DNA from: Acidimicrobiia bacterium
GTDB lineage: Bacteria > Actinomycetota > Acidimicrobiia > Spongiisociales > JAENVV01
Assembly: GCA_041586155.1 (NCBI GenBank)
Contig: JBFHAT010000005.1
Span: 10,520-74,519, forward strand
Direction of reading: 5' to 3'
Length of the DNA: 64,000 nucleotides
Shown here: in pieces, positions 1,206-63,081 of the stretch
Position numbering within the stretch: position 1 is the stretch's first letter
How the letters are laid out: every line of letters starts with the position of its first letter
The notes under the pieces: generated by a model
The model's database searches: none
Seen by the model: only the letters and a program-made list of their open reading frames with translations
Told to the model about the DNA's origin: nothing
Made by a program: the position numbers and the translations under genes

Positions 1206-1232
1206 TCGGACAGCACGGTTAGCCTGACCGGG

Positions 1233-7228: not shown

Positions 7229-7254
7229 CGGATGTTAGCCAGGGAGGGTCCCGG

Positions 7255-17182: not shown

Positions 17183-17345
17183 GAACAGTGGCCGTCCACG
17201 TTGGTTGATGACTCACTCTCCGGTCGTGCCGAGCTTCGATGACACCCCGCCGACGGCACGGGCGTCGATCCGGGGGGAGTTGCCCAGAGCGACACACGTT
17301 AGATGGGTCGGCCGGCTACCGGATCCGTGGTGTTCTCCGAACTTT

Positions 17346-17374
17346 CTTCACAAAACGCCCCAATGTGCGTACTA
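17346..17374 (+). promoter_or_regulatory. Candidate sigma-70-type promoter for the Wzz-like gene (TTCACA-17 bp-TACTAT)
   Basis: AT-richer hexamers with 17-bp spacing, ~50 bp upstream of ATG 17425 within a 240-bp intergenic region. Confidence 0.3.
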
Positions 17375-17424
17375 TTGTCGGCGGGCGCGGCGGAGGCACC
17401 GCGAGTAAAGGGTGGGAAGGAACC

Positions 17425-31978: not shown

Positions 31979-32017
31979 TTCAGTTCTTCCTCCTGGTTCT
32001 GATTCGTCGAAGGCCAC

Positions 32018-33256: not shown

Positions 33257-33284
33257 TGGTGCATCTCCCGGGGGTGGACTCTTC

Positions 33285-34310
33285 TCATACCCGCCGGATC
33301 TCCTCCGTGCCGAACAGCCCGTAGGGCCTGATCAGCAGCACTACGAGCATGACCAGGTAGGGAACGACGCCGCCGAATCCGGTTCCGAGGAACTCGAACG
33401 TCAGGTAGGTGCTGGCAGCCGCCTCGGCGAAGCCGATAGCAAAACCGCCCACCAGGGCGCCGACGATCGAGTCGAGCCCGCCGAGGATGATCGCCGGAAA
33501 GGCCCTGAACGCGAAGAACGCAGTCAGCGTGTCGACCCCGCCGGGCCGGCGGGGGAACATCGAGATGAACATCCCTCCGATCGCCGCCAGCGCCGCCCCG
33601 ATTGCCCAGGAGATCGAGAAGATCCGGCCAACCGAGATGCCCTGGGCGCGGGCCGCTTCCTGGTCCCATGCCGTCGCTCGCATGGCGATCCCGGTGCGCG
33701 AGCGGAAGAACCAGGTCACCCCGATGACCAGCAGCGCGGTCAGGATCATCTGGAAGGCAGTCGTGTAGGGCAGGCGCAGCGAGCAGAGGTCGGTGAGCTG
33801 GATACTGGGCTCGTAGCCTCCCGTCTCGCATCCGAACCCCATCTGCTTGAGGCCGAACGGATCGCCCATGGGTCTGGGATTCAAACCGAGGAAGTCGTTC
33901 GCAACGGTGCGGAGCACGATGTCCATTCCGAGCGTGACGATCGCAACGGCGAAGAGGGCTTCCCCCAGCATCGGTCGGAGGAACAGGCGCTCCAGCACCA
34001 TGCCCAAGGCGGCGGCGAACAGCACCGCGAACACGAGCGACAGCCCCCATCGGATCCACTGCGGCGAGCCCTCCATCCACCGTCCGGGGATGTTGATGAT
34101 GGTGGCGAACGAAGCGACGAAGAAGGCCCCCAGCGCTCCGAGCGCACCGTGGGCGAAGTTGAGCACCTGGGTCGCCTTGAAGATGATCACGAAGCCCAGG
34201 GCGAGCACGGCGTAGATGGCACCGAGGCTGAGGCCATTGACGACCATGAACCCGAAGCTCGACGCCTCCGGTCCGGCCTGAGCGAGGACGACCACCCCGT
34301 TGACCGTCAC
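33285..34310 (-). CDS. livH: Branched-chain-type ABC permease, LivH-like
   Basis: 341 aa. FMVVNGLSLGAIYAVLALGFVIIFKATQVLNFAHG motif. Confidence 0.75.
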   Translation of the reverse strand: MTVNGVVVLAQAGPEASSFGFMVVNGLSLGAIYAVLALGFVIIFKATQVLNFAHGALGALGAFFVASFATIINIPGRWMEGSPQWIRWGLSLVFAVLFAAALGMVLERLFLRPMLGEALFAVAIVTLGMDIVLRTVANDFLGLNPRPMGDPFGLKQMGFGCETGGYEPSIQLTDLCSLRLPYTTAFQMILTALLVIGVTWFFRSRTGIAMRATAWDQEAARAQGISVGRIFSISWAIGAALAAIGGMFISMFPRRPGGVDTLTAFFAFRAFPAIILGGLDSIVGALVGGFAIGFAEAAASTYLTFEFLGTGFGGVVPYLVMLVVLLIRPYGLFGTEEIRRV

Positions 34311-37908: not shown

Positions 37909-38799
37909 CTAGTCGAACAGGCCCCGCCACAGCTTGCGGAAGAAGCCTTCTTCCGGTCGTGGCAGATCGGCCAGCACCCGTCCCTGCAGATCGAGCGGAA
38001 GCTCACCCACCAGGACGAACCCGCCTTCGGGCGAAGTCCATGCAATGGCGGCCGAACCGAGCGAGAACGCACGCTGATATCGATTGCCCTCGATGGTGCT
38101 GTCGGGCACCTGTGCCAGCTCCGGCACCTCGATCTGCTTCTCTGAGTTGAGAACGGTGAAGGAGAAGACGCCGTCGCCGTAATAGGCAGCGGCGATCTCC
38201 GGCTCGGGTCCCTCGGACACGGACAGGCGATCGAAGCCTCCCACCACCGAGGGAAGGGCGCGCTCGTTGAACGAATCGACCGACTCCATCACCACCTCAG
38301 CCAGGTCGACGTCGGCGGTGAGCCCAGGCTGTCCCGGCTCGAACGAGACGAACCTCGTCGAACAGTAGGTCGTGCCGTCGGCGTTGAACACGTCGGACGC
38401 CAGCAGCACGCCGGTGGTGACGTCGAAGCGCATCCTGAGGCGGATTGTTTCGGCCTCGAGAACCTCGACGATCTCGACCGGGCGTTGCAGAAAACGGCCG
38501 CTCCGACCATCGCGTACGTCGTAGCGGCCGGACTCGATCCAACCGGCGTCGACGGCGACCATCGCTGCCCGCACGACTCCGCCGGCGTCGCGCGACACGA
38601 CCACGCCCTCAGCCTGCGACACCTCGAAGACATCGGACGTGCGACCGTCGGGCGTGTTGCACACCACGGTTTGCTCGCCGGTGTACACGGCCTCTGCTTG
38701 CCGGCTGAGCAGCTCTTCGAGATCGACGGCGCCGGCCAGCGGCCCGAAGACGCTGAGCCCCGCCACGACGGCGATGATGGTCGTCAACCGGGCGGTCAC
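37909..38799 (-). CDS. MucB/RseB-like protein (sigma-E regulatory, LolA-like fold)
   Basis: GTG start overlaps the anti-sigma stop (GTGA). N-terminal hydrophobic anchor LTTIIAVVAGLSVFG. Follows sigE and its anti-sigma. Confidence 0.45.
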   Translation of the reverse strand: MTARLTTIIAVVAGLSVFGPLAGAVDLEELLSRQAEAVYTGEQTVVCNTPDGRTSDVFEVSQAEGVVVSRDAGGVVRAAMVAVDAGWIESGRYDVRDGRSGRFLQRPVEIVEVLEAETIRLRMRFDVTTGVLLASDVFNADGTTYCSTRFVSFEPGQPGLTADVDLAEVVMESVDSFNERALPSVVGGFDRLSVSEGPEPEIAAAYYGDGVFSFTVLNSEKQIEVPELAQVPDSTIEGNRYQRAFSLGSAAIAWTSPEGGFVLVGELPLDLQGRVLADLPRPEEGFFRKLWRGLFD

Positions 38800-39224
38800 C
38801 GGGTGCCTCCCTGCGTCGGCTGACCGAGGTTCTGGGTGATGACGGGATCGTGCAATTGCTGCTGCTGATACTGCAACGACACATCGTCCAATGTGATCCC
38901 GACCACGTCGGGAGCGGATGCGGTGGCGGCGGCGACGAACACGATGATCGCGGCGGCGGCTGCGGCCACCCAACTCAGGGGTCGCCGTCGCAGCGGCACG
39001 ACCTCGGCCGGAGACCCGACCCCGGCGAGGAGCCCGACCGGGAGCTCGAGGACGGGCAGCGACCGCAGCGCACTACGGGCTGCATGGAGGTCTGCCATTT
39101 CGAGACGACAGCGCTCGCAGTCGGCGAGGTGTTCGACGACCATCAGCGACTCGGCGGCGGACGTTTCGCCATCGAGATAGGCGGAGGCCAGCTCGCCGAG
39201 GTGGTTTCCGGCCGCTCTCGTCAT
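38796..39224 (-). CDS. Anti-sigma factor (zinc-finger HC2 type)
   Basis: ASAYLDGETSAAESLMVVEHLADCERC motif. C-terminal TM segment. Overlaps the sigE stop. Confidence 0.7.
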   Translation of the reverse strand: MTRAAGNHLGELASAYLDGETSAAESLMVVEHLADCERCRLEMADLHAARSALRSLPVLELPVGLLAGVGSPAEVVPLRRRPLSWVAAAAAAIIVFVAAATASAPDVVGITLDDVSLQYQQQQLHDPVITQNLGQPTQGGTR

Positions 39225-40476: not shown

Positions 40477-41409
40477 CTAGCTCAGAGCCAGAGAATCGAC
40501 GAAATGCTGCAGCCGCTCCCTGGTGACGAAGCGGACCCTCGAATCGTTGCGCTCGCGCTCGTACACCTCGAACGGCCCATACTTGTCGCTCACCAGGAGG
40601 CCCCGATCGGCCTTGGATGCGAGAAAGGTCACGGTGAAGTCGCGGATGGCCGTCTCGGACACTTCTTGGTATCCGCCCGGCTCGTGGGGCACGTCGTAGA
40701 TGAGTGTCGTGGTTCCGGCCCGGGAGGCTCTGTAGAGATGGTCGTCCTCCTGAGTGACCTGGTAGCCGAACACCGCGAGCGTTCCCCGCACCAGCTCTCC
40801 CGCCGACATCGTGGACGGATCGATGCCCTGCGCCCGCAATCCGACGTCGACCGCCTTGGGAATGCGCAGCTCCCTGCCGATCGGGACCAACTCGCCCTCG
40901 GTGGACGTCGACGTCGTCTGCGGCGTCGCATCGCTGCGGCCGGTGAACTGCTCTTCGAGCGGATCGATGTCGACCGCCGAGAGATCCAGCACCGCCGCAC
41001 CGGACAGTGGCGGCGGCAGTTCGCCGGGAGCAGGAAGTCGGATCCGGCCGACCTCGCGCACCTCGCCCCTCCCTGCGAATGCGACCACCTCGGTGACCTG
41101 GTCGATCGGCAGATGATGGCGCTTCTCGCGGGTGACCTCGAGGGCCTCGTTGATCAAGAGCTCTTGCATCAGCTCGTCGGGTCCGTCACTCTCCGGCAAG
41201 GGGACATCGAACGTGACCTGTGCTTCGTGTTCTTGGACGTGGAAGGCGGCAACCGCAGGTCGCGGACGATCGACCGAGAGCTCCATCGCCGGTGCCCCAT
41301 CGGGGGTCACCAGCGCTTCCTTGGCGGTTTGCGTCCGGCGCCTGGTCATGATTGCAAACGCCATCAGCAGGAGACCGATGATGATGATCACGATGCCAAC
41401 CGTCTGCAC
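40477..41409 (-). CDS. Hypothetical membrane-anchored protein
   Basis: Ile-rich N-terminal TM (MQTVGIVIIIIGLLLMAFAIM), unusual for a GC-rich genome and therefore likely real. A long linker, then a ~110-aa C-terminal domain. The antisense ORF 40504..41712 was rejected. Confidence 0.45.
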   Translation of the reverse strand: MQTVGIVIIIIGLLLMAFAIMTRRRTQTAKEALVTPDGAPAMELSVDRPRPAVAAFHVQEHEAQVTFDVPLPESDGPDELMQELLINEALEVTREKRHHLPIDQVTEVVAFAGRGEVREVGRIRLPAPGELPPPLSGAAVLDLSAVDIDPLEEQFTGRSDATPQTTSTSTEGELVPIGRELRIPKAVDVGLRAQGIDPSTMSAGELVRGTLAVFGYQVTQEDDHLYRASRAGTTTLIYDVPHEPGGYQEVSETAIRDFTVTFLASKADRGLLVSDKYGPFEVYERERNDSRVRFVTRERLQHFVDSLALS

Positions 41410-41754: not shown

Positions 41755-42091
41755 CGTGTCCCTCTCACTCTTCCCCTCCTCGTCCCTCTGACGCTCCCCT
41801 CGAGGTTTCCTCCGGCGCACGCCCGTGTTGGTCCGGGCCGGCCGTGAGACAACTCCGCGTCTCCGGTTTCCGGGTGGCCTACATCCCGATGGTCGGTTTT
41901 CGCGATCCGCTCCGCTCGCTCGAACCACTCACATCCGTGTAATTACACCATTGTGATTGTGGACCTCTCGGCCCCGGCCTGTCAAGCCCGACACCTCCAA
42001 AAGCCCCTCTCCGACGCCGATTTGGGTCCTGCGACCTACCGGCGAGGGCCGCGCTGGCATAATGGGCCGGCACCGAGAGAGCAGGAGCATC

Positions 42092-42814
42092 GTGGCAACC
42101 ACCGAGCTTGAGCGCCCCCGCCGCCAGATCTGGCTCGTCGACCTCTATCGCTCCGACATCGGCAAGAAGTACGCGATGGCACTCTCGGGCATCATCCTCT
42201 TGGGGTTCGTCGTCGCCCACATGGTCGGCAACCTCCATCTCTTCGAGGGCCCAGAGAAGATGAACGAGTACGGCGAGTTCCTTCGCGATTTCGGCGAGCC
42301 GGTTGCGCCCCGCAGCGTGGTGCTGTGGCTCCTTCTGCGGATCCCCCTGATCGGCGCCTTTGCCGTGCACATCCATGCCGCCTACGCCCTGACGTACGTC
42401 AACGCCAAGGCCAGGCCCGACAAATACCAGCAGCCCCGAGAGTGGCTGGCGGCCAGTTACGCGTCACGCACGATGCGATGGTCCGGAACGATCGTGCTTC
42501 TCTTTCTGATCTGGCACCTGGCCGATCTCACCTGGGGTTGGACGTTCGTGAACCCTGACTTCGAACGGGGTATGCCCTACGAGAACGCGGTGGCATCGAT
42601 GAGCCGCGCGGGTGTCGCGGCGCTCTACGTCGTGGCCAACGTCGCGCTCGGATTTCACATCTTTCACGGCGCATGGAGCCTGTTCCAGAGCATCGGCGCC
42701 AACCATCCCCGCTTCAATCGGTGGCGCCGGTGGCTCGCCCAAGGGCTGGCGACCGTCGTCGTACTGGGCAATGTGGCTTTTCCCATCGCCATCTTCACCG
42801 GTTTCGTGGGTTGA
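42092..42814 (+). CDS. sdhC: Succinate dehydrogenase/fumarate reductase cytochrome b subunit (single-anchor, Bacillus/Mtb Sdh1 type)
   Basis: Five TM helices with conserved His residues. GTG start after GCAGGAG. Directly upstream of sdhA. Confidence 0.75.
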
Positions 42815-42828
42815 GGAGGTCTGGCGAA

Positions 42829-44748
42829 ATGATCACCCTCGACGCACGCATCCCGGAGGGCCCCATCGACCGGCTCTGGGAGAACCACAAGTTCGAGATG
42901 AAGCTGGTCAACCCCAACAACAAGCGCAAGTTCACGGTGATCGTGGTCGGCACCGGACTCGCCGGTGCCTCGGCTGCCGCCACCATGGCCGAGTTGGGCT
43001 ACCGCGTGAAGGCCTTCACCTACCACGACTCCGCGCGGCGAGCCCATTCCATCGCCGCCCAGGGCGGCATCAACGCCGCCAAGAACTACCACGGCGACGG
43101 AGACTCGATCTTTCGGTTGTTCTACGACACCGTGAAAGGCGGTGACTTTCGGTCCCGGGAAGCAAACGTCTACCGGCTGGCCGAGGTGTCGGTCAACATC
43201 ATCGACCAGGCCACCGCCCAAGGCGTCCCGTTCGCCCGCGAGTACGGCGGGCTCCTCGACAACCGCAGCTTTGGTGGAGCGCAGGTGTCTCGTACCTTCT
43301 ACGCCAGGGGCCAGACCGGCCAACAGCTGCTGCTCGGGTCGTACCAGGCGTTGTCGCGTCAGGTAGCGCTGGGCAACGTCGAGCTGCACCGACGAAGCGA
43401 GATGCTCGAACTCGTCATGAAAGACGGGCGAGCCGTGGGCATCGTCACCCGCGACCTCGTCACCGGCGAGATCGCCTCCCACAGCGCACACGCAGTGGTC
43501 CTGGCCACCGGCGGCTACTCGAATGTCTACTACCTCTCCACCAATGCAATGGCGTGCAACACCACCGCCATCTGGCGAGCTCACCGCAAGGGGGCGGCGT
43601 TTGCCAACCCGTGTTTCACCCAGATCCATCCGACCTGTATCCCCTCTTCGGAGGAGTTCCAGTCGAAGCTGACGCTCATGTCGGAGTCGCTGCGCAACGA
43701 CGGTCGCATCTGGGTACCGATGAAAGCCGGGGACACCCGCCCGCCTCACGAGATCCCCGACGCTGAGCGGGACTACTACCTCGAGCGCAAGTACCCGGCG
43801 TTCGGCAACCTGGTGCCTCGCGACGTGGCCAGCCGCAACGCCAAGACGATGGTGGATCAAGGCAAGGGTGTCGGCCCCCTCGAGAACGGCGTCTACCTCG
43901 ACTTTGCCGACTCGATCGCCCGCCTCGGCCGCGACGTCATCGAAGAACGGTACGGAAACCTTTTCGAGATGTACGAGCGGATCACCGACGAGGACCCCTA
44001 CCAGATGCCGATGAGAATCTATCCGGCTCCCCACTACACGATGGGCGGATTGTGGGTCGACTACCACTTGATGACGACGATCGACGGGTTGTTCGCCATC
44101 GGCGAGGCCAACTTCTCCGACCATGGCGCCAACCGGCTTGGAGCATCAGCGCTCATGCAGGGATTGGCGGACGGGTACTTCGTGCTTCCCTACACCATTG
44201 GCAACTACCTTGCCGATTTCCTCGGCGAGGACCCGGTGCATCCCGAGGACTCGGCTTTCGGGGAGGTGGAGCAGGACGTGAGGGACCGCGTTGCCCGCTG
44301 GCTGTCAGTCAAGGGGAGCCGCACGATCGACTGGTTTCACCGCGAATTGGGCAAGATCATGCTCGAGTACTGCGGCATGACTCGTTCGCAGGCCGGGTTG
44401 GAGAAGGCATTGTCGGAGATCCCGGCGCTCCACGATGAGTTTCGCAATGACGTGCGGGTGCTCGGCTCATCCGGCACCCTGAACTCGTCGTTGGAGAAGG
44501 TCGGCCGAGTGGACGACTTCTTCGAACTGGCCCAAGCCATGTGCGTCGACGCCCTCGACCGAGCCGAGTCGTGCGGCGGCCACTTCCGCGAGGAGTACCA
44601 AACCGAAGAAGGCGAGGCGCTCCGACGTGACGACGAGTTCGCTTACGTTTCGGCCTGGGAATGGTCGGGTGATCCGGGGGCTCCGGTGCTCCACGAGGAG
44701 CCTCTCGAATTCGAGCACGTCGAGCTGACTCAGAGGAGCTACAAGTAA
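42829..44748 (+). CDS. sdhA: Succinate dehydrogenase flavoprotein subunit
   Basis: FAD-binding [27 protein letters not shown] covalent FAD His region. 639 aa. RBS GAGGAGG. Confidence 0.9.
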
Positions 44749-45512
44749 TGGACCTGACTCTCGAGGTGTGGCGGCAGCCACACGCCGACGCGCCCGGCTC
44801 CATGGTCACCTACGAAGCGAGGGACATCTCTCCCGACATGTCGTTTCTGGAGATGCTCGACGTGGTGAACGAGCGTCTCATCCAAGACGGAGAGGAGCCC
44901 ATCGTTTTCGACCACGACTGCCGCGAAGGAATCTGCGGCTCGTGCGGTCTCATGATCAACGGCCAGGCCCACGGCCCTCAGCTCGGCACCGCCACCTGCC
45001 AGCTGCACATGCGCAAGTTCGCGAATGGCGACACGATCATGATCGAGCCCTGGCGGGCCGCCGGCTTTCCGGTGATCAAGGATCTCGTCGTCGACCGAAC
45101 CGCCTTCGACCGCATCATCGAGGCCGGCGGCTACATCACCGTGCCCACCGGTTCGGCGCCCGACGCCAACCTCATTCCGGTCCCGAAGGAGGCGGCCGAC
45201 ACCGCCTTCGACGCCGCCGCGTGTATCGGGTGCGGCGCCTGTGTTGCAGCCTGTCCCAATTCGGCGGCGCAACTGTTCACGGCGGCCAAGGTCGCTCATC
45301 TCAATCTGCTGCCCCAAGGCCAGCCCGAGCGCTGGACCCGGGTTGAGGCCATGGTCGACACCATGGAGGAGTACTTCGGCTCGTGCACCAACCACGGAGA
45401 GTGCGAGAAGGCCTGCCCCAAGTCCATCTCGATCGACTTCATCGCGCTGCTCAACCGCGACTACATCAAGGCCAAGGTGATCAACCGTCGCCTGGCCGGT
45501 CAGACCCGCTGA
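44748..45512 (+). CDS. sdhB: Succinate dehydrogenase iron-sulfur subunit
   Basis: 2Fe-2[11 protein letters not shown] and 4Fe-4[13 protein letters not shown] clusters. TAATG overlap with sdhA. Confidence 0.9.
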
Positions 45513-45644: not shown

Positions 45645-46082
45645 ATGGCCTATCGCCATAGATGGCGTCAGAGAAGGGAAGACGATGGCGCCGCGCTGGT
45701 CGAGTTCGCCATTCTCGCCCCATTCTTGATTCTGCTGGCGCTGGGGATGGTCGAAGCCGGATGGGCGTTCAACGCCAAGCTCGACGTGACCCATGCCGCC
45801 CGCGAGGCCGGCCGACTCGCGGCAGTCAATACCGATACCGCCGCCAACATGGTGGCCGAGGCGTGCAGCCGTATGGACCTCTCCAACAACACCACCATCG
45901 AGCTGACTCGCACGGGGGCTCAGATCGGCGACGAGCTGGCCGTCGACGTGATTCACAACTACACGAGCATCACCGGCGGCTTCATCCCGTTCTTCAACGG
46001 CATCACCGTCAACTCGACCGTGGAGATGCGCCTCGAACAAGACGCCACCTGGTCGGGGATCGCGGGGCCGATCTCATGTTGA
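45645..46082 (+). CDS. TadE-like protein (Flp pilus assembly/pseudopilin-like N-terminus)
   Basis: DDGAALVEFAILAPFLILLALGMVEAGWAF TadE motif. 145 aa. Confidence 0.65.
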   Translation: MAYRHRWRQRREDDGAALVEFAILAPFLILLALGMVEAGWAFNAKLDVTHAAREAGRLAAVNTDTAANMVAEACSRMDLSNNTTIELTRTGAQIGDELAVDVIHNYTSITGGFIPFFNGITVNSTVEMRLEQDATWSGIAGPISC

Positions 46083-47578
46083 GCCGGTTCCGTCGCAACG
46101 AGCGAGGCGCCACCGCCGTGATGGTCGCCTCGATGATGCTGCTGCTGATGGGCATCGCCGCCCTCGTCGCCGACTGGGGCATGGGCACCTCGGTGCGCCG
46201 GGCCGCTCAGAACGCCTCCGACGCCTCTTCACTGGGCTCGGCGATCGAGTTCACCATCAACGCCGGCGCCAACCCGATGCAAGCAGCGGTAGACGAGGTG
46301 TATGACCTGGTGAACCGCAATATGGCCGATGCGCCGACCGCGGCAGACTGGACCGCCTGCGTCGACCCCACCCCGCTCGCCCGGCGAACCTTGAGCGACG
46401 GCGCGCTGTTGGGGGTGGTGGGTGGTTCCGACTGCATCAGCTGGAGCGCCAACTTCGACGAAGTCCGGGTGCGCATCCCCACCCGAGGCGTCGACACGTT
46501 CTTCGGGTCGGTGTTCGGCATCAACCAGATCGACGTGGCAGCAGAAGCACACGCTGCGGTGGTCGGCAACAGCGGCGGAGGCGGTTTCGCCTTTCCCACC
46601 GGGGTGTTCAGCGACGCCGGCGGCACCGAATTCTGCATGAAGACCGGCACCGGCGCCCAATCCCACAACAGCTGCGGTGACCCCACCACCGGCGACTTCG
46701 GCAACTTCCGGCCCTACTGGTACGCCGAGATCGCCCCCGGCGGCCCCAACTCGGAGTGCACGTCGGGCGAGCAACCCACTCCGATGTCACGGGTCATGGC
46801 GGTCGGCATGGACCACGAGCTGGGTCACTGGATCGCCGGCAGCGACCGGAGGAACGGCGCCGGATGCCCGGCCGCGGCCGGCCCGCCCAAGCCCAACATG
46901 CTCGACTCTGCAGCTGGCTACACGAAGACCGACATCAGCAACGGGCTGGTCAAGGGCGGCGTCTACGACGGCGCATTCGCCGGGCGACTCGACGGTGGCT
47001 ACGACACCGGATGGGGCACCACCACCGTCTTCGGCTTCACGATCGACAACCGTCCGCTGTGGACGATGATCGATCCGAGCGTGGGCACTCCGGAATGCAT
47101 CGCGGCGCGGGCCCATCCAGCCGCTCCCGCCGACGCCGCCGCCTATGACGCTGCCTGGGCGGACATGCTGGCATGCCTCAGCAACCACACAGGGCTTCTG
47201 TTCACCTCAGCCATTGAGAGCTCGGCCCGGCTTTCAGCGGTCCCGAAATTCATCGAGACCACGCCGCTGCCCAACAACTCGTGCTGCTACCACGTCGACT
47301 ACATCGTCCCGATGTGGATCCAGGACCTCTACGTCGTCCTCTCTCCCCAGCTCACGTGCAACGGCACCCTCGACAACGACCCGGTGGAGGGAACCTGTGT
47401 CTCCCGGCCCGGGCTGAACGGCACGATCAGCATCGTCGCACCGGGGCAACGGGTCCTCGACTCGGCCAGCGGGGTCGTGCTCGAATGCGACCATCTGCCC
47501 GACGATCTGTGCAACTCGCTCAGCGGAGGCCCTGGGGGCGGCACCAACAGCTTCACCGGCGTCGAGCTGACCCGCTGA
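46076..47578 (+). CDS. TadG-like N-terminal domain protein with Cys-rich extracellular region containing an HELGH motif
   Basis: ERGATAVMVASMMLLLMGIAALVADWGMG (TadG-like N-terminal motif). Start overlaps the TadE stop. Cys-rich 470-aa C-terminal region. MDHELGHW at 46811..46834. Confidence 0.6.
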   Translation: MLSRFRRNERGATAVMVASMMLLLMGIAALVADWGMGTSVRRAAQNASDASSLGSAIEFTINAGANPMQAAVDEVYDLVNRNMADAPTAADWTACVDPTPLARRTLSDGALLGVVGGSDCISWSANFDEVRVRIPTRGVDTFFGSVFGINQIDVAAEAHAAVVGNSGGGGFAFPTGVFSDAGGTEFCMKTGTGAQSHNSCGDPTTGDFGNFRPYWYAEIAPGGPNSECTSGEQPTPMSRVMAVGMDHELGHWIAGSDRRNGAGCPAAAGPPKPNMLDSAAGYTKTDISNGLVKGGVYDGAFAGRLDGGYDTGWGTTTVFGFTIDNRPLWTMIDPSVGTPECIAARAHPAAPADAAAYDAAWADMLACLSNHTGLLFTSAIESSARLSAVPKFIETTPLPNNSCCYHVDYIVPMWIQDLYVVLSPQLTCNGTLDNDPVEGTCVSRPGLNGTISIVAPGQRVLDSASGVVLECDHLPDDLCNSLSGGPGGGTNSFTGVELTR

Positions 47579-47655
47579 AGGCGACCGGCATGGCCGGATG
47601 CCGTAGTTAACCGCTGCTAACATCGCCCCTCCCGTTCGACGAAAGAGGCGAGAGC

Positions 47656-48045
47656 ATGGGCGTGAAATACCTCAGCGAAGAATGGGCCAACGCATTCACC
47701 GATGCGCTGGCCAACCACGACGGCTTCCAGAGTGCCATCGGCACCACCGACCTCGGAGTCCAGTTCCAGGTCACCGACGCCCCCGACGGCGGCACCGTCG
47801 ACTACTACCTCGACATCGGCAACGGATCCGCCAAGATGGCGCTGGGTCAGCTCGAAGACCCCGAGGTCACGATCGCTTCCGACTACGAGACGGCCGCGGG
47901 CATCTCGAAAGGTGAGCTCAACACCCAGGCAGCCTTCATGACCGGAAAGATCAAGGTGACCGGCAACCTGGCGGTGTTGATGATGCATCAGCCGATCGTG
48001 TCCAACTGGACCGCCGCCGCCCAGACCGTCGACATCGACTACTAG
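47656..48045 (+). CDS. SCP2 (sterol carrier protein 2-like) domain protein
   Basis: 129 aa. LSEEWANAF...AAFMTGKIKVTGNLAVLMM is the typical SCP2 C-terminal motif. Confidence 0.7.
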   Translation: MGVKYLSEEWANAFTDALANHDGFQSAIGTTDLGVQFQVTDAPDGGTVDYYLDIGNGSAKMALGQLEDPEVTIASDYETAAGISKGELNTQAAFMTGKIKVTGNLAVLMMHQPIVSNWTAAAQTVDIDY

Positions 48046-48061
48046 CGTCTCACCAGATCTC

Positions 48062-48091
48062 ACTCATTGTGGTAACCTGACCACAATGAGT
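48062..48091 (+). terminator. Perfect 12-bp-arm inverted repeat (ACTCATTGTGGT-aacctg-ACCACAATGAGT) after the SCP2 gene; hairpin or protein-binding palindrome
   Basis: Read directly from the sequence. AT-richer than the surroundings. No U-tract. Confidence 0.35.
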
Positions 48092-48179
48092 CGAAGGACC
48101 TATAGAACTCCGCTCACCGGACCGATAACCTCCAGAGGGGTCGCCAACCGGCATCACGCCGTATGAGGGAGTGGAGAAC

Positions 48180-48623
48180 ATGACGATCCGGGGCAGAATC
48201 GACTCGCGCCGTACCACGCTCGGCGAGGAGCGCGGCGCCGCCCTCGTCGAGTTCGCCGTAAGCGCCATGCTGCTGTTCACCCTCTTGTTCGGCATCATCG
48301 AGGCGGGGTGGGCCTTGTCGAATCAGCTCGATCTGCGGCATTCGGCACGCGAAGGCGCCCGAGTGGCGGCCGTCGGCGCCAACAACGCCGACATCGTCAA
48401 CGCCGTATGCGATGCCATCAAGCCGGGACCCTTCCGAGCATCGGCAACCGTGGCGATCAACGGAGGGACCGACGTCGGAGACACCGTCGATGTCACCGTC
48501 ACCGCCACCAGCAACGGGCTTTCCGGATTCCTCCCGGTCTTCAACAACATCATCATGGACGACACGGCCATCATCTACCTCGAACAGTCGCCCAACTTCG
48601 GAGCGGGCGGCACCTGTCCATGA
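48180..48623 (+). CDS. TadE-like protein (second copy)
   Basis: ERGAALVEFAVSAMLLFTLLFGIIEAGWAL. ATG 48180, with an alternative GTG at 48171. Confidence 0.65.
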   Translation: MTIRGRIDSRRTTLGEERGAALVEFAVSAMLLFTLLFGIIEAGWALSNQLDLRHSAREGARVAAVGANNADIVNAVCDAIKPGPFRASATVAINGGTDVGDTVDVTVTATSNGLSGFLPVFNNIIMDDTAIIYLEQSPNFGAGGTCP

Positions 48624-50110
48624 TCGGCCGGCTCCGCACCGACGAGCGCGGCTCGACGCTGCTCATCGTGGCCTCGTCGCTGCTCGTCCTGATGGGTTTC
48701 GCCGCCCTGGCCGTTGATTGGGGGCTGGGCACCAACCAGCGGCGCGCCGACCAGAACGCCTCCGACTTCGGAGCACTGGGGGCCGTACAGTTCGCCAACC
48801 TCGACGTGACCGCCACCTGCAATCAGTCCAACGTCCGCATGCGGGCCGCCTGCAACGGCGCCGAAGCGGCAATGACCGTTGTCGACCTCAATCTGACCTT
48901 CACCCCGGACTGGACGCAGGCACCGTGCGATCCCAATCGCCCGGCCGAGTTCACGATCGTGTCGCCGCTGACCGACTGCATCAGCTTCACGTCGTCGCTC
49001 GACCGCGCCCGGGTGAGAACTCCGATCATTCCGGTCAACACCCAATTCGGAGCGGTCTTCGGCGTCACCGAGATCGACACCGCCGCCGAAGCAGAGGCAG
49101 GGGCCCGTTCGCTGCTGGGCGGGGCGGTGCTGCCGTTCGGAATCCCCAGCAACTTGGCCGGATCTTCATACGAGTGCTTGCGGTCGGGGGCGCATCCCCA
49201 GTGGGGACCCTGTGCGGGCGGTACCACCGGAAACTACGGGTCACTCGACGTTCCCACGTACGGCTCCGAGGAATTCGTGCAGGCCAACGGCGGCTATGTA
49301 CCAACCATCACCCGCTGCAACGGCGACACCAACGGACGCCTGACCTGGAACATTGCTGCCGGGGTGGATCATCCGATGAGCACCTACACCGTCGGCGATC
49401 CGATCGTGAACGATCGGGCCTCCTGCCCGGTGTTCAACGCCGAGCCCAACCAGGTCGCCGCCCAGACCGGCATCGGCTCCGCGCTCGAGCCGGGCCTGTT
49501 TCAGTCGACCAGCGCCTACTCGGAAGACGGCACCGTGATCCCCGGTCGGCTCAGCCGGGGCGGCAACCAGGTGCAGATCAAGAACGGGGTGTGGGCCGAC
49601 GACACCCCGCTGTGGGACTTCCTGTTGCCGGGAACTTGTGCCGGTGTGCCCGGGGTGACCGGTCAGGTCGACAACCACGCCGAGATGGAGCTGTGCCTCG
49701 ACGCCTGGATGGCCGGCACCGTGGTGGGCATCATCTTCGACCCCGACATTGGGACCTCGGTCCGGTACGGTTTCGCCCCCGAGCTCGACCGCCCCTTCGG
49801 GCCGGGCACCCAGGACTACTTCATCGAGCGTTTCCGGCCTGTCTACCTCGACACGAGCTGGTTCAAGTGCACCGCCTCCGGCCAATGCGACACCGTTCAT
49901 TCGCCGGGTGAGCTCGACCCGTCGATCAGCAATCCCACCGACTCGTGTGCCGCCATCGCCGACCCGGTGCTGACCTGCGGCCTCTTGGTCGCCTCACAGG
50001 ACATCGCTGCCCTGTCGGCCTACATGCTGCAACCCGACATGCTGCCGGCCTCGATCCGCCAGCCCATTCCTGCCGACGACGACCAGCTCGCCTACAACCT
50101 GTCGGGCTGA
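48620..50110 (+). CDS. TadG-like N-terminal domain protein, Cys-rich extracellular paralog (no HExxH)
   Basis: ERGSTLLIVASSLLVLMGFAALAVDWGLG. ATGA overlap with the TadE copy. Colinear similarity to the 46076..47578 product. Confidence 0.6.
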   Translation: MIGRLRTDERGSTLLIVASSLLVLMGFAALAVDWGLGTNQRRADQNASDFGALGAVQFANLDVTATCNQSNVRMRAACNGAEAAMTVVDLNLTFTPDWTQAPCDPNRPAEFTIVSPLTDCISFTSSLDRARVRTPIIPVNTQFGAVFGVTEIDTAAEAEAGARSLLGGAVLPFGIPSNLAGSSYECLRSGAHPQWGPCAGGTTGNYGSLDVPTYGSEEFVQANGGYVPTITRCNGDTNGRLTWNIAAGVDHPMSTYTVGDPIVNDRASCPVFNAEPNQVAAQTGIGSALEPGLFQSTSAYSEDGTVIPGRLSRGGNQVQIKNGVWADDTPLWDFLLPGTCAGVPGVTGQVDNHAEMELCLDAWMAGTVVGIIFDPDIGTSVRYGFAPELDRPFGPGTQDYFIERFRPVYLDTSWFKCTASGQCDTVHSPGELDPSISNPTDSCAAIADPVLTCGLLVASQDIAALSAYMLQPDMLPASIRQPIPADDDQLAYNLSG

Positions 50111-50148: not shown

Positions 50149-51087
50149 TCACTCGAGCGACAGCGAGTGGAGCTCGTCCACCTTGGCTTTCACCGCTTCA
50201 GCCGCGTCGTGGAGAGCAGCACGCTCTCCGTCGGTCAGGTCCAGCTCCACCACCTGCTCGACGCCGTTGGCGCCCAGCGTCGCCGGGACGCCAAGATAGA
50301 CCTCGTTGATGCCGTACTCGCCGCCGACCCATGCACAGACCGGCATCTGGTCGTGTGAGTCGGTGACGATGGCCCTCACCATTGCCGCTGCAGCGGACGA
50401 TGGGGCGTAGTAGGCAGAGCCGGTCTTCAGAAGCGCGACGATCTCCGCGCCGCCGTCGCTGGTGCGTTGCACCAGGCTGGCGATGGTGTCATCGTCGAGG
50501 ACCTCGGTGAGGGGCGCCCCGTCGACCCGACACTGGGAAGGAACGGGGACCATCGTCTCGCCGTGCGAACCGAGGGTGAGTGCTTCGATCTTCTGGATAT
50601 CGACGCCGGTCTGTTCCGAGATTAAGTGGGCGAATCGCGAAGAGTCGAGGATCCCGGCCTGTCCCATGACCTTGTTGCGGGAGAGACCGCTGACCTCGGC
50701 GGCGAGCGTCGTCATGTGATCGAGCGGATTGGTCACCACCACCAACGTCGCGTCGGGCGACGCGTCCATGATCTGTTCGGTCACGGCTTTGACGATCTTG
50801 GCGTTCACCTCCAGCAGATCCATGCGACTCATCCCCGGCTTGCGAGGAAGGCCGGCGGTGATCACCACGACCTCGCTACCGGCCGTGTCGGCATACGAAT
50901 TGGTTCCGACCACCTTGGTCGAGTACCGCTCCACCGGCCGGCTCTGATTCATGTCGAGGGCCAGGCCTTGGGGCAGACCTTCGACGATGTCGGTCAGGAC
51001 GACCTCATCGACGATGTCTGCCTGAGCGAGGCGCATCGCAGTCGTCGAGCCGTACTTCCCGGCTCCCACTACGGTTACTCTGCGCAT
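50149..51087 (-). CDS. mdh: Malate dehydrogenase (LDH-like NAD-dependent)
   Basis: VTVVGAGKYGSTTA Rossmann motif. LDxxR substrate region. Start ATG 51087 with AAGGAG. Confidence 0.85.
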   Translation of the reverse strand: MRRVTVVGAGKYGSTTAMRLAQADIVDEVVLTDIVEGLPQGLALDMNQSRPVERYSTKVVGTNSYADTAGSEVVVITAGLPRKPGMSRMDLLEVNAKIVKAVTEQIMDASPDATLVVVTNPLDHMTTLAAEVSGLSRNKVMGQAGILDSSRFAHLISEQTGVDIQKIEALTLGSHGETMVPVPSQCRVDGAPLTEVLDDDTIASLVQRTSDGGAEIVALLKTGSAYYAPSSAAAAMVRAIVTDSHDQMPVCAWVGGEYGINEVYLGVPATLGANGVEQVVELDLTDGERAALHDAAEAVKAKVDELHSLSLE

Positions 51088-51137
51088 GCTGCGGAACTCC
51101 TTCACTGGCGAGGGCCGTAGCGTAGCTGCCCTGCCTC

Positions 51138-52292
51138 ATGCGAATCATCAAGCCCTACCTCCTTGCGGCCGTCTTGGCCGTCTCCGTGGCCGCCTGCGCC
51201 GGCTCGCCCGATCCCACGCCGACCACCACCCGGCCGGAGCTTGTGGACCGGATCTTCGACCTGACCGACCCCGTCATCCAGGCCGAGGTGGGTGCCCCGC
51301 CGTTCGAACCGGTCGGGTGGCAGCGCTTCGTCGGTCCGTTGACCGCCGTCGGCGACACCGCCCTGCCTGATCCGCGGGAGGTGGAGATCATCGCTGCTGC
51401 AGCGGCCGATGCGGTGCCGCAGTTGCTCGACGGCGTACGCAATCTGGTTCGCACGTCGGATGCGCCTCCCTCTCACCTCGACACGTCGGCGGCGGTGGCG
51501 GTCGCCGTCGGACCCGATATCTATCTGCTGGACCGGGTTTTCTCGGTCGAGGCTCGGGCTGGGCGATATCAGGTGGCGTATGCGATCAACCACGAGCTGA
51601 CCCACGTCCAGCAGTGGCTGGCGCTGGACGACGCATATCTGAACGCCGCTGCCCGGGGCGAGGTCGACGCGATCGAGCTGGATTCCGGCTCAGACGCCGT
51701 GCGGGCGTTCGCCGCCGCCACCGGTTGGACCGACACCGGCGACGAGCCGTGGCAGGCGCAGTGGGTGATCGACAGCGATTCCGTCCCTGCCACCGAATAC
51801 GGGACGGCCGGCCCGGCCGAGGACATGGCCGAGACCGTTGCGCTCGCTGCGTCGGGTAGGAGCAACTGGCTCGACCCGGCCCGCCGCGTCTGGCTGTCCG
51901 AGTGGCTGGGGGCGCCGCTGACGGATCTCGATGCTGGTCAGCCCTTCGTACCCGAAGGCGCCTCCGAGGTGAACTCGGCCGACCTCCTCTACGACGAGGA
52001 AGCCGTTGCGGCGCAGAAGGGCGAGCGGCGGCGCGTCGAGCCGCTGTATTTCCAGCTGCCCGCCGACGTCGACGCAGCCGAAGTCCTCGCCGCCGACATC
52101 GCCGAGGAACTAGGACGGCGAGGGCTGACCGGGACGATGGCCACCATCGACGACGAGCGGCTCATGCGGTTCGGAGGCTCCTTCGAGAGGGGCGACGGCG
52201 TTGGATTCCGGGTGGAGCTGTGGGACTTCCGCACCTCGACCTTCGAAAGGGGGCCGGGTGAGCCGATTCTGAGCTACGTGATGATCTGGTGA
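51138..52292 (+). CDS. Lipoprotein with HExxH motif (putative zinc metallopeptidase)
   Basis: Lipobox LAVSVAAC. INHELTHVQQW motif. 384 aa. Confidence 0.45.
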   Translation: MRIIKPYLLAAVLAVSVAACAGSPDPTPTTTRPELVDRIFDLTDPVIQAEVGAPPFEPVGWQRFVGPLTAVGDTALPDPREVEIIAAAAADAVPQLLDGVRNLVRTSDAPPSHLDTSAAVAVAVGPDIYLLDRVFSVEARAGRYQVAYAINHELTHVQQWLALDDAYLNAAARGEVDAIELDSGSDAVRAFAAATGWTDTGDEPWQAQWVIDSDSVPATEYGTAGPAEDMAETVALAASGRSNWLDPARRVWLSEWLGAPLTDLDAGQPFVPEGASEVNSADLLYDEEAVAAQKGERRRVEPLYFQLPADVDAAEVLAADIAEELGRRGLTGTMATIDDERLMRFGGSFERGDGVGFRVELWDFRTSTFERGPGEPILSYVMIW

Positions 52293-58770: not shown

Positions 58771-60287
58771 TGTAAGAAGTGCCTCCTGTGAGTGAACACC
58801 ATCGCCATGTCGTGTTCGTCGGCGGCGGCGACAACGGTTTCATCGCCCTTCGATCCTCCCGGCTGCACGACTGCGGTGACCCCGCCAGCGGCCAAGACAT
58901 CGATGCCGTCCGGGAACGGGAAGAACGCATCGCTGGCCGCTACTGCCCCGTCCGCCCGTTCCCCCGCCTTCGCCAGCGCCCGCTCGGCGGCGCCGACCCT
59001 ACTCTGATCGCCTGCTCCTATCCCGACGGCCAAGCCGTCTGCTACGACGACGATGGCGTTGGACTTGGTGTGGGCCGCCACCGTCCATGCGAATTCGAGA
59101 TCCGCATGCTCACGCTCGGTCGGATGCCTCAGAGTGACCGTCGTCGAACCCGCCAGGTCGAAGCCGACCTCGTCTCGCTGCTGGAGGAGGAACCCGCCAT
59201 CGACGCGTCGCCAATCCGGATCGTCGGTATGGGGCGCGCCGGCTTCGATGAGACGAAGATTGGTCTTGGCGGCCAGGCCCGCGGCGTCGACCACCTCCGG
59301 AACGACGATGATCTCGACGAAGCCGGCAGCCGCCAGCACATCGGCGGTGGCTGCATCGAGCGGTCGATTGAGTGCCACCACGCCGCCGAACGCAGAGAGC
59401 GGGTCGCAGCTCCAGGCGGCCGAAGCGGCATCCGCCAAGTTCGGGCGGATGGCAACACCGCACGGGTTGGCATGTTTGACGATCACGCAGGCCGGTTGGG
59501 CAAACGCCTGGACGAGCCGCCACGCCGCCTCGGCATCTGCGTAGTTGTTGAATGACATCGGCTTGCCCTGCAGCTGGCGCGCCGCCGACCACCAGCCGGC
59601 CGAGCCCTCCTGGCGGTACAAGCCGGCGGGCTGGTGCGGGTTCTCCCCGTACCGGAGCACGGCAAAGCGCTCGACAGCCAGCACTGCTCGTTCGGGAAGA
59701 TCTGGACCTCGCTCCATCCATTCGACGATGGCGGCGTCGTACCGCGCCGTGTGGAAGAAGGCGACCCGCGCCAGCCTCCGGCGAAGCTCGTCGGAGAGCC
59801 CTCCTGCGGCCACTGCGTCGGCCACTTCGTCGTACAGGTCGGGCGACGTCACCACTCCGACGCTTTGATGATTCTTGGCAGCGGCCCGGATCATCGTGGG
59901 TCCACCGATATCGATCTGCTCCACGATCTCAGATTCGGTCACCCCCGCCGTCGCCGCGGTGGCTTCGAACGGATACAGGTTGACGACCACGAGATCGAAC
60001 GGGGTGATGTCGTGCGACCGCAGCTCGGCCATGTGATCGGCATTGCCCTGATCGGCGAGGATGCCGGCGTGGATGCGGGGGTGCAGGGTCTTGACCCGCC
60101 CTCCGAGCATCTCGGGGGCGTTGGTGACGGACTCGACGCTGACGACCGGAAGACCGGCCTCGGCGAGGGTACGAGCGGTGCCGCCCGACGAGACCAGTTC
60201 GACACCCGCATCGACCAGCCGGGAGGCGAATTCGATCAGCCCCGCCTTGTCGAACACGGAGATGAGCGCCCGCCGGACCTCACCCAT
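58767..60287 (-). CDS. purH: Bifunctional AICAR transformylase/IMP cyclohydrolase
   Basis: ALISVFDKAGLIEFA MGS-like domain then AICARFT domain. 506 aa. Confidence 0.9.
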   Translation of the reverse strand: MGEVRRALISVFDKAGLIEFASRLVDAGVELVSSGGTARTLAEAGLPVVSVESVTNAPEMLGGRVKTLHPRIHAGILADQGNADHMAELRSHDITPFDLVVVNLYPFEATAATAGVTESEIVEQIDIGGPTMIRAAAKNHQSVGVVTSPDLYDEVADAVAAGGLSDELRRRLARVAFFHTARYDAAIVEWMERGPDLPERAVLAVERFAVLRYGENPHQPAGLYRQEGSAGWWSAARQLQGKPMSFNNYADAEAAWRLVQAFAQPACVIVKHANPCGVAIRPNLADAASAAWSCDPLSAFGGVVALNRPLDAATADVLAAAGFVEIIVVPEVVDAAGLAAKTNLRLIEAGAPHTDDPDWRRVDGGFLLQQRDEVGFDLAGSTTVTLRHPTEREHADLEFAWTVAAHTKSNAIVVVADGLAVGIGAGDQSRVGAAERALAKAGERADGAVAASDAFFPFPDGIDVLAAGGVTAVVQPGGSKGDETVVAAADEHDMAMVFTHRRHFLH

Positions 60288-60885
60288 CGCGTTTCCACGT
60301 GACCTTGCGACCTTCCACGCTCAATCGACCCTGGGCGAATGCGCGTATCACTTCGGGATAGAGGCGGTGCTCGACCTGCTGGATGCGGGCATGGAGCGAC
60401 TCGATGGTGTCTCCTTCGATGACCGGCACCGCCTCTTGGGCGATGATCGGACCATGATCGACGAGCTCGTCGACGAAATGGACCGTGACGCCCGTCATCT
60501 TGACTCCATGTGCCAGCGCTTCTCGCACCGCGTGGGCGCCGGGAAACGCCGGGAGCAATGCCGGATGGACGTTGATGATGGGGAAGCTGTCGACTGCGGC
60601 GGAGCTGAGAACCCGCATGAAGCCGGCGAGCACCAGCGCCTCGGCACCGGCTCGCTCGGCGGAGGCGATGATGGCGTCCGTGAAGGACGGACGATCGGGA
60701 AACGCCGACCATTCCACGACGTCCGCGGGAATCCCGGCTGCGCGGGCCCGGTCGAGGCCTCCGGCGTGCCGACGGTCTGCGATGACGACCACGATCTCGA
60801 TTTCGGCGACTGGATCGCTCCGCGCATGATCGATCAACGCCTGCAGGTTCGAGCCACTGCCGGAGACGAGGACGGCCACACGCAC
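60280..60885 (-). CDS. purN: Phosphoribosylglycinamide formyltransferase
   Basis: VLVSGSGSNLQAL; INVHPALLPAFPG; formyltransferase N-domain. Confidence 0.9.
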   Translation of the reverse strand: MRVAVLVSGSGSNLQALIDHARSDPVAEIEIVVVIADRRHAGGLDRARAAGIPADVVEWSAFPDRPSFTDAIIASAERAGAEALVLAGFMRVLSSAAVDSFPIINVHPALLPAFPGAHAVREALAHGVKMTGVTVHFVDELVDHGPIIAQEAVPVIEGDTIESLHARIQQVEHRLYPEVIRAFAQGRLSVEGRKVTWKRDG

Positions 60886-60938
60886 CGGACGATTGTAGGG
60901 CGCTCGTCCCCCGGGTCAGGGAACCAGCGGCGAGGTGG

Positions 60939-61861
60939 TCACCGGCCCAATGCTCGGAGCATGGCTGCCCCCATGTCGGTCGGTGTGGGCGCCACCACGA
61001 TGCCAGCCCTTTCGAACGCACCGATCTTGTCGGCTGCAGTCCCTTTGCCGCCTGAGATGATCGCCCCGGCGTGTCCCATCCGCTTGCCGGGTGGGGCCGT
61101 CGTACCGGCGATGAAACCGGCCACGGGCTTGTTCATGTGCTCGGCGACCCACTCGGCGGCTTCCTCCTCGGCGGTGCCACCGATTTCGCCGATGACGATC
61201 ACTCCCTCGGTGTCGGGGTCGTCGTTGAACATGCGCAGACAGTCGACGAAATTCGTGCCGTTCACCGGATCTCCTCCGATTCCGACTGCGGTGGTTTGAC
61301 CCAAGCCGTTGCTCGTCAGCTGGAAAACTGCTTCGTAGGTGAGGGTTCCCGAGCGGCTCACCACACCGATGCTGCCCGGGGTGTGAATGTACCCAGGCAT
61401 GATCCCGATCTTGCACTGCTGGGGAGTGATCACTCCAGGGCAGTTGGGTCCGACGAGGCGCACCGGCTTGTCCTCCAGGTAACGCTTGGCGACCACCATG
61501 TCGGCTACGGGAATGCCTTCCGTGATGCACACGATCAGCTCGATGCCCGCAGCCGCTGCCTCCATGATGGCGTCGGCGGCAAACGGCGGCGGCACGTAGA
61601 CGACGCTCGCGTTGGCCCCGGTGTCCGCCTTCGCCTCGGCGACCGACCGGTAGATCGGGACATCCACGCGGTATCGGTCGTCGCGCCCCTGTACGCCGCT
61701 GTGGTCGGTGTCACCTTCGAACGCCATGGTTGTCCCCGCCCGCGAGGGGTGAACGCCGGCCACCACGTTGGTCCCGTAGGCGAGTGCCGTGTCGGTGTGG
61801 AACTTGCCGGTCTTACCCAATCCCTGCACCAGCAGCTTGGTGTTCTTGTCAACCAGGACGC

Positions 61862-61865
<4 letters not shown>
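60939..61865 (-). CDS. sucD: Succinyl-CoA ligase subunit alpha
   Basis: CoA-binding domain plus ligase-CoA domain. Catalytic His region. 308 aa. Confidence 0.9.

Positions 61866-63081
<1,216 letters not shown>

Follow-up and report, generated by a model that had tools for sequence, protein, structure and literature searches.

Tandem TadE-TadG-like gene pairs between sdhCAB and mdh in an Acidimicrobiia genome as candidate alternative tips of a Tad pilus

Introduction

What can two sets of pilus-tip-like genes be doing in a genome neighbourhood that has none of the genes for building a pilus? The question is raised by a 64,000-nt stretch of an Acidimicrobiia bacterium (GenBank assembly GCA_041586155.1, contig JBFHAT010000005.1, positions 10,520 to 74,519; hereafter the window, 65% G+C), in which two tandem gene pairs each encode a small TadE-like and a large TadG-like protein. 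We refer to the large proteins of cassettes 1 and 2 as Big1 and Big2, and to their small partners as TadE1 and TadE2. An original prediction, made from the sequence alone, had described two paralogous modules on either side of an SCP2 gene and had taken them, together with the SCP2 protein, for a surface display system repurposed away from a Tad pilus. The modules are indeed as it described them, all five genes lying where it placed them, the small proteins matching PF07811 and the large ones PF13400, in Big2 under the cutoff (Table 1). The interpretation that we favour, with fair though not strong confidence, is a different one, in which each gene pair is an alternative tip cassette of a Tad (type IVc, Flp) pilus, with the motor, peptidase and major pilin encoded elsewhere.

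Tips made of such proteins have been described in Myxococcus and Caulobacter. In Myxococcus, KilL/M/N, which are homologous to TadE/F/G, assemble into tip complexes with the outline of a spearhead that are rich in predicted disulfides and whose large subunit, KilN, has a distal domain without a PDB homolog; there are four paralogous tip clusters, three of them remote from the kil machinery genes, and TadEFG proteins were proposed to be customised tips in general (Herrou et al., Nature Communications 2025, PMC12075869). CpaL, the TadG ortholog of Caulobacter, consists of a pilin module to which a vWA domain is joined distally; it has a G/A-X4-F/E processing site and is predicted to lie on the tip with CpaJ and CpaK (mBio 2025, PMC12607857). 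It behaves like GspK/PilK, its extreme C-terminal strand completing its own N-terminal pilin sheet; the ∼470 residues between the sheet and the terminal strand sit atop the tip, and the strand is needed for fibre assembly (PNAS 2026, PMC13533445). Actinobacteria possess Tad pili, and in B. breve the peptidase is encoded at a separate locus (PMC6916266); Tad and type IVa (T4a) genes have been reported from an Acidimicrobiia order (PMC12008989).

Gene pairs with the signatures of Tad minor pilins

Both small proteins are clear members of the TadE family in Pfam (Table 1; NCBIfam adds sub-threshold TadE matches only). As read from the sequence, each has a class-III signal followed by a hydrophobic helix, the signal being RREDDG↓AALVEF in TadE1 and GEERG↓AALVEF in TadE2 (arrows mark the putative cleavage position). 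The two share 37% identity (E=4e-26) and have two Cys apiece, at positions 74 and 145 in TadE1 and 77 and 146 in TadE2; the start that we use for TadE2 agrees with metagenome gene calls. Despite a paralog identity of just 30-40%, the motif G(-1)-xxxx-E(+5) is kept in 98 of the 99 TadE partners across related loci, and the sole exception is a frameshifted reading.

Big1 and Big2, also taken for paralogs in the original prediction, align with 33% identity (E=5e-38), and Big1 has a weak Tad_C match at residues 43-160 in addition to its N-terminal Tad domain. Their leaders, RNERG↓ATAVMV in Big1 and TDERG↓STLLIV in Big2, have no Glu at +5. The same holds for the wider family, whose N-terminus reads [DE]-[RK]-G↓A-[TS]-A-[VI]-L: all 22 aligned large proteins have Gly at the cleavage position, and at +5 they have L, V, I or M, never Glu. 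GspK, the apical minor pilin of systems for type II secretion (T2SS) and of type IV pili (T4P), lacks Glu5, which fits the contrast between TadE proteins that keep this residue and large proteins that lack it.

In the AlphaFold2 (AF2) model of Big1 (mean predicted local distance difference test score, pLDDT, 83.9; predicted template modelling score, pTM, 0.78), a helix of ∼55 residues (7-61) is followed by two short helices, a small β-sheet (∼121-163), a large Cys-rich distal domain of ∼330 aa (∼170-484), a low-confidence Gly-rich tether (485-493) and a terminal strand (495-498, VELTR). Big2 is modelled with the same topology at lower confidence (pLDDT 70.7), with the helix at 9-60, strands at 121-162 and, after a flexible tether, a predicted terminal strand at 492-494 (YNLSG). 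Each protein has 14 Cys. The C-terminal ∼330 aa of Big1 and Big2 match no Pfam or NCBIfam family at E≤1, vWA included; the family profile has no match among PDB sequences, and a Foldseek search of the Big1 model against PDB gave no fold match (best E=0.41). The picture of a Cys-rich extracellular region that lacks a vWA domain and belongs to no characterised family is therefore borne out.

The absence of tad genes nearby, likewise anticipated, extends across the whole window. Pfam scans of ∼50 window open reading frames (ORFs) found no T2SSE, T2SSF or peptidase A24 domain, neither tadA/B/C/V nor flp occurs in any part of the 64 kb, and six-frame P-loop scans returned ABC transporters and chance matches only. 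TadE1 and TadE2 are the sole window ORFs that combine G-xxxx-E with a hydrophobic helix, so the window has no Flp-type pilin.

Table 1. The two cassettes and the genes that flank and separate them (window coordinates)
Feature	Position	Strand	Length	Family match or remark
sdhCAB	41957-45512	+		upstream flank of the five-gene interval
TadE1	45645-46082	+	145 aa	PF07811, E=7e-15, 55.3 bits (cutoff 22.9)
Big1	46076-47578	+	500 aa	PF13400 Tad at residues 11-54, 25.0 bits (cutoff 22.3)
SCP2-domain protein	47656-48045	+	129 aa	PF02036, E=1.5e-11
TadE2	48180-48623	+	147 aa	PF07811, E=5e-13, 49.5 bits (cutoff 22.9)
Big2	48620-50110	+	496 aa	PF13400, 17.8 bits (under the cutoff of 22.3); paralog of Big1
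Malate dehydrogenase (mdh)	50149-51105	minus	318 aa	downstream flank of the five-gene interval

The large-protein family

The large proteins form a family without useful annotation in the libraries searched, almost confined to metagenome-assembled genomes (MAGs) of Acidimicrobiia. A word-indexed search retrieved 25 relatives, three of them labelled "TadG" and the others unnamed or "hypothetical". An exhaustive profile search retrieved 389 cluster representatives at E≤1e-30, with more than 150 full-length representatives at E<1e-70; in reference genomes there are 32 loci, nearly all in Acidimicrobiia MAGs, and the top match is 53% identical. Big1 itself is on record twice in the protein collection, as a 500-aa product (P0174, Logan) and as a 485-aa product (P0001, NCBI and Logan). 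The latter starts at Met16, 15 residues late (window 46076-46123), and so lacks both the leader that the family conserves and the Gly of the cleavage site (ERG↓ATA); this late start probably explains why P0001 has no Pfam domain record.

Six Cys are invariant in the family alignment and further ones nearly so, and the total is even (8, 10, 12, 14 or 16) in 146 of 163 full-length representatives. Within the distal domain, G244-x-D246-H247, R304, D324, W329 and R385 are invariant, the motifs TGDFGNF and IDNRPLW are conserved, and Y216 belongs to the invariant polar constellation. The extreme C-terminus is among the best kept features of a family that is otherwise 30-50% identical: its pattern is [VIL]-x-L-[TVIS]-[RK]-COOH, and of the 163 representatives 156 have L at -3 and 122 end in Arg or Lys. 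Among 161 sequences anchored at the C-terminus, the last eight residues covary with columns 120-165, the pilin sheet, which supplies 10 of their 42 top partners as against 4.4 expected (binomial P=0.010; an earlier run with 43 sequences was underpowered). The covariation is no more than suggestive of a terminal strand that pairs with this sheet.

When Big1 is compared with Big2, helix α1 is 52% identical and the pilin head 39%, and the values drop further along the distal domain, to 25% in its first half and 18% in its second. In an alignment made up mostly of Big1-type orthologs, conservation of the distal domain equals that of the base. Taken together, these two patterns indicate heads that vary between cassettes and are kept within one type.

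Cassettes in related genomes

Related loci were taken from genomes and metagenome assemblies and are labelled L001, L006 and so on. Their gene order is whiB, sdhCAB, cassettes, a DHDPS-like gene, SCP2, mdh and then nadCBA or icd, and the interval from sdhCAB to SCP2-mdh holds between one and at least six TadE+TadG-like cassettes. There is one cassette in L006, the closest relative, two in L019, four in L022, and five or six in L009, L010, L023 and L025; L001/L012, on a 1.06-Mb contig, packs six TadG-like genes and eight TadE-like ones into 13 kb, and the array continues beyond the fetched stretch. Some cassettes of these arrays hold full-length members of the Big family, while others match over the N-terminal 60-200 positions only and differ in their heads (L001/L012 at 1-7500, L009 at 900-5400, L010 at 1400-6200, L027 and L031). 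Some have two TadE-like genes per large gene. Cassettes found beyond the sdhB-mdh site lie among glycogen/trehalose genes or next to RNase PH, Ham1 and NDH2.

In 35 complete modules, every large gene has a TadE gene immediately upstream, at a gap of -6 to +90 nt, and the two genes frequently overlap; in the window, the TadE1 and Big1 genes overlap by 7 nt, and the TadE2 and Big2 genes by 4 nt (ATGA), the Big2 start overlapping the TadE2 stop codon. The identity matrices of TadE and large proteins correlate (Mantel r=0.41, none of 2000 permutations as high). The nearest homologs of TadE1 are the TadE genes that adjoin the nearest homologs of Big1: both subunits of module 1 have their nearest relatives in the same cassette, from L006/L010, and both subunits of module 2 have theirs in the same cassette from L023. 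Given these correlated matrices and shared nearest relatives, the cassettes duplicate and evolve as units. The two window modules fall into different ortholog groups; they represent two old subfamilies whose duplication is ancient, not recent.

A search for DNA repeats, inversion sites and shufflon-like signals around the cassettes found only short matches that reflect protein conservation. As no DNA-level repeat joins the modules, we reject recent duplication or programmed switching of the cassettes. Several long-read MAGs have large genes that are truncated or split into two or three frame-shifted pieces (L021 7971-11514, L023 7924-11525, L025 10001-13485 and L035 10004-10852); these could be assembly errors or true pseudogenes of decaying cassettes.

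Surroundings of the cassettes

The SCP2 protein, which the original prediction had counted into the system, has no Cys, no signal and no hydrophobic or transmembrane segment. In relatives its gene occurs once per locus, downstream of the whole array and beside the DHDPS-like gene and mdh, at any cassette count. Because its position and number stay constant next to mdh whatever the number of modules, we place it outside the cassette system, as what is probably a cytoplasmic housekeeping bystander, and we reject on synteny the idea of a lipid-handling partner. The peculiarity of the window is that its second cassette lies in the gap between SCP2 and mdh. This gap is nearly empty in L006; in L039 (13123-16148) it holds a 446-aa protein of no recognised kind and a 562-aa FG-GAP/ASPIC protein, and it resembles another variable slot in which surface proteins can lie.

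On the other side, 133 nt separate sdhB from TadE1. This gap contains no consensus terminator, and its visible hairpin folds no better than shuffled sequences (z=-0.87), on which grounds we reject a terminator or attenuator there.

According to the Pfam scans, the upstream neighbours are an extracytoplasmic function (ECF) sigma factor, WhiB and sdhCAB, and the downstream neighbours are mdh, nadCBA, NrtR, icd, folD and purH. The WhiB gene and the G+C content of 65% mark the window as actinobacterial. Two types of malate dehydrogenase occupy the same position among relatives: the window mdh compares with those of L006, L035 and L031 at E∼1e-150 to 1e-66, and with those of other loci at E∼1e-13 to 1e-21. 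Between mdh and nadC, a 384-aa protein (51138-52292) has a borderline match to eCIS_core/DUF4157 (zincin-like; E=1.8e-4, with a score right on the cutoff of 22 bits); this protein is kept next to mdh in L006 (E=4e-73) and L035 (E=8e-82) and absent from the other relatives.

Further left lie a branched-chain amino acid ABC transporter, DivIVA, UPF0182 and an apparent cell-envelope glycan cluster (12-21652). The cluster comprises SLH-domain proteins at 12-1205 and 14739-15944, three genes for GT4 glycosyltransferases or relatives of these, four sulfotransferases, an ABC-2 exporter pair, a DegT aminotransferase and a TauE sulfite exporter, a set that points to a sulfated wall polymer to which surface proteins are anchored by SLH domains. 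Scans for tRNA genes and Rfam families gave zero matches in the window, which thus shows no tRNA-linked island signature. A spike in AT skew (+0.255 at 32001-34000) coincides with two minus-strand genes for branched-chain amino acid permeases and is a coding-composition effect, no anomaly. Sizeable ORFs without a Pfam match (412, 665, 354, 310, 414 and 694 aa) sit at 60061-63068, 37909-38973, 40477-41409 and 15938-19323; the two at 60061-63068 overlap in crude gene calls.

Discussion

How could the cassettes work as tips? A prepilin peptidase would cut TadE after the Gly of G↓AALVEF, and Glu5 of the mature protein would dock into the filament core. The large protein would be the apical subunit, equivalent to TadG, CpaL, KilN and GspK, and would do without Glu5, as there is nothing above it in the filament. 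The N-terminal helix of this subunit and its small β-sheet would form the base that pairs with TadE in a putative heterodimer, and the ∼330-aa distal domain, presumably disulfide-rich, would cap the pilus and set what the tip binds or does. The Gly-rich tether would return the last strand to complete the sheet of the pilin domain, a step of the sort that licenses fibre assembly in Caulobacter. Two cassettes with the same base and different heads would then give pili with two types of tip, and relatives could have up to six or more. We infer that other parts of the genome encode the ATPase, the platform proteins, the prepilin peptidase and the major pilin Flp.

By analogy, Big1 and Big2 match the apical-pilin blueprint of CpaL point by point, except for a head that is not vWA. 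Like TadG/CpaL of A. actinomycetemcomitans and C. crescentus, they have an N-terminal PF13400 Tad domain, a pilin-like module of long α1 helix and small sheet (as modelled by AF2), a large domain inserted between this module and a conserved C-terminal strand, a TadE-type minor pilin as partner and a predicted apical position. They differ in that the distal domain is Cys-rich, without a vWA/MIDAS fold or a Pfam or PDB match, in that they have one TadE partner, whereas CpaL has both CpaJ and CpaK, in that their genes never adjoin tad machinery, and in that the host is a monoderm actinobacterium of the Acidimicrobiia type. With the Tip1-4 clusters of KilL/M/N they share the occurrence of several paralogous clusters per genome, mostly unlinked to machinery, a large subunit that, like KilN, would form the extremity with a distal domain predicted to be disulfide-rich and lacking PDB homologs, and a common helical base with variable heads ("adaptable tips"). 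Unlike the Kil clusters, which have three genes and are scattered, the cassettes here have two genes and line up in tandem at a single conserved place on the chromosome, and we see no evidence for a predatory role.

The likeness extends to other classes of type IV filament. GspK and PilK (PilX) of T2SS and type IVa pili (T4aP) are the largest minor pilins of their systems, lack Glu5, cap a tip complex, and combine an inserted domain with a terminal β-strand that is supplied to the sheet (PMC13533445). They belong to the T2SS/T4a class and not to the Tad class, have no detectable sequence similarity to the proteins described here, and have a much smaller inserted domain, whereas that of Big1 and Big2 is large and disulfide-rich by prediction. 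Treuner-Lange et al. reportedly described, in 2020, three minor-pilin/PilY1 gene sets for the T4aP of Myxococcus. Such sets resemble ours as alternative tip or priming sets for one machine, held in separate cassettes, and differ in being T4a sets with a non-pilin adhesin, PilY1, and not Tad. The kind of system is thus known, and what is new are the two-gene cassettes, the Cys-rich head without a recognisable fold, the tandem amplification at a hot spot in a monoderm lineage, and the consistent unlinkage from machinery.

Some observations speak against tip cassettes. Each window cassette encodes two proteins, and the characterised tips have three (TadE/F/G, CpaJ/K/L and KilL/M/N). The covariation signal of the terminal strand is modest, and A. 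actinomycetemcomitans TadG is not known to be cleaved by TadV. A survey of 81 related loci (37 from genomes and metagenomes and 44 more mainly from a JGI metagenome scan) plus the window, with ∼0.76 Mb of flanks, found no T2SSE-type ATPase within 10 kb of family members; the few P-loop ORFs at related loci are ABC transporters, a RadA-like protein and antisense artefacts. Never being linked to machinery is unusual for cassettes that serve a Tad pilus. This constant unlinkage cuts both ways, as it fits the unlinked tips of Myxococcus and also keeps alive the idea of a pilus-independent complex, in which the proteins stay in the cytoplasmic membrane by way of their N-terminal helices and show the Cys-rich domain on the surface. 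Such a complex would need no secretion ATPase, platform, peptidase or Flp gene, in keeping with the window and the 10-kb flanks of ∼80 related loci, and the cassettes outside the sdhB-mdh site do sit among unrelated housekeeping genes. We nonetheless hold it to be unlikely. In a simple membrane anchor it is not obvious what the near-universal Gly at -1 and Glu at +5 of TadE would be for, nor the leader Gly and terminal strand of the large protein; a membrane-anchored protein of ∼500 aa would hardly clear a monoderm wall, and this host seemingly has SLH-anchored surface proteins too; and a working Tad pilus with unlinked tip clusters is known (PMC12075869). Since the cleavage Gly, the TadE Glu5 and the terminal strand are kept, and their known role is only in the assembly of type IV filaments, independence from a pilus is disfavoured. 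For the same reasons, the features peculiar to filaments (Gly and Glu in 98 of 99 TadE proteins, the invariant leader Gly, and L at -3 in 156 of 163 large proteins) leave the proposed repurposing away from a Tad pilus unsupported.

A less probable explanation still is a bindosome-like or pseudopilus display, in which the large proteins would be extracellular enzymes or binding proteins with a class-III signal, built together with TadE into a short, wall-spanning stub by a type IV machine (Tad or another), and would serve mainly in substrate capture or catalysis and not to prime or cap a long pilus. The invariant polar constellation (G244-x-D246-H247, R304, D324, R385 and Y216), with TGDFGNF and IDNRPLW, resembles a ligand-binding or active site more than a variable adhesin, among orthologs of Big1 the distal domain is well kept, and there are many different distal domains across the arrays. 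Searches of Pfam, NCBIfam, PDB sequences and Foldseek found no similarity to an enzyme or binding protein, however; a conserved terminal strand and the lack of Glu5 characterise apical pilins in particular (PMC13533445), and the same unseen machinery would be required. The position of the cassettes might instead point to succinate dehydrogenase or the TCA (tricarboxylic acid) cycle, the proteins being co-transcribed membrane partners of complex II: the place directly after sdhB is kept in at least 10 related loci, and the cassettes follow sdhCAB on the same strand, across a gap free of consensus terminators, and precede mdh. We consider this highly improbable and reject a functional link, as the copy number at the site varies from one to at least six and members also lie beside unrelated genes, such as those for glycogen/trehalose or RNase PH/NDH2. 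They are pilin relatives located outside the cytoplasm and rich in disulfides, and the site resembles a permissive hot spot, its SCP2-mdh gap holding other surface proteins (FG-GAP, in L039).

Returning to tip cassettes, one may ask how far the reading can be stretched. The lineage might have its own expandable set of interchangeable tips, numbering from one to at least six, at a fixed sdhCAB-mdh hot spot, with heads of a new fold that carry a catalytic or ligand-binding Asp-His/Arg/Asp constellation, or else an autonomous display derived from pilins that works without a Tad machine; we find either of these doubtful. The practical importance of the locus is modest pending the function of the head domain. 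The features gathered here (a leader ending in Gly and followed by no Glu5, a Gly-rich tether and a terminal [VIL]-x-L-[TV]-[RK]) form a signature for spotting apical Tad pilins in unannotated genomes. Swappable minor-pilin tips that customise Tad pili were proposed just in 2025-2026, from Myxococcus and Caulobacter. If our reading is true, this locus carries the idea to monoderm, uncultured soil Acidimicrobiia, and does so in an extreme form, with two-gene cassettes, a head whose fold matches none on record, at least six copies at one conserved site, and machinery that is always unlinked.

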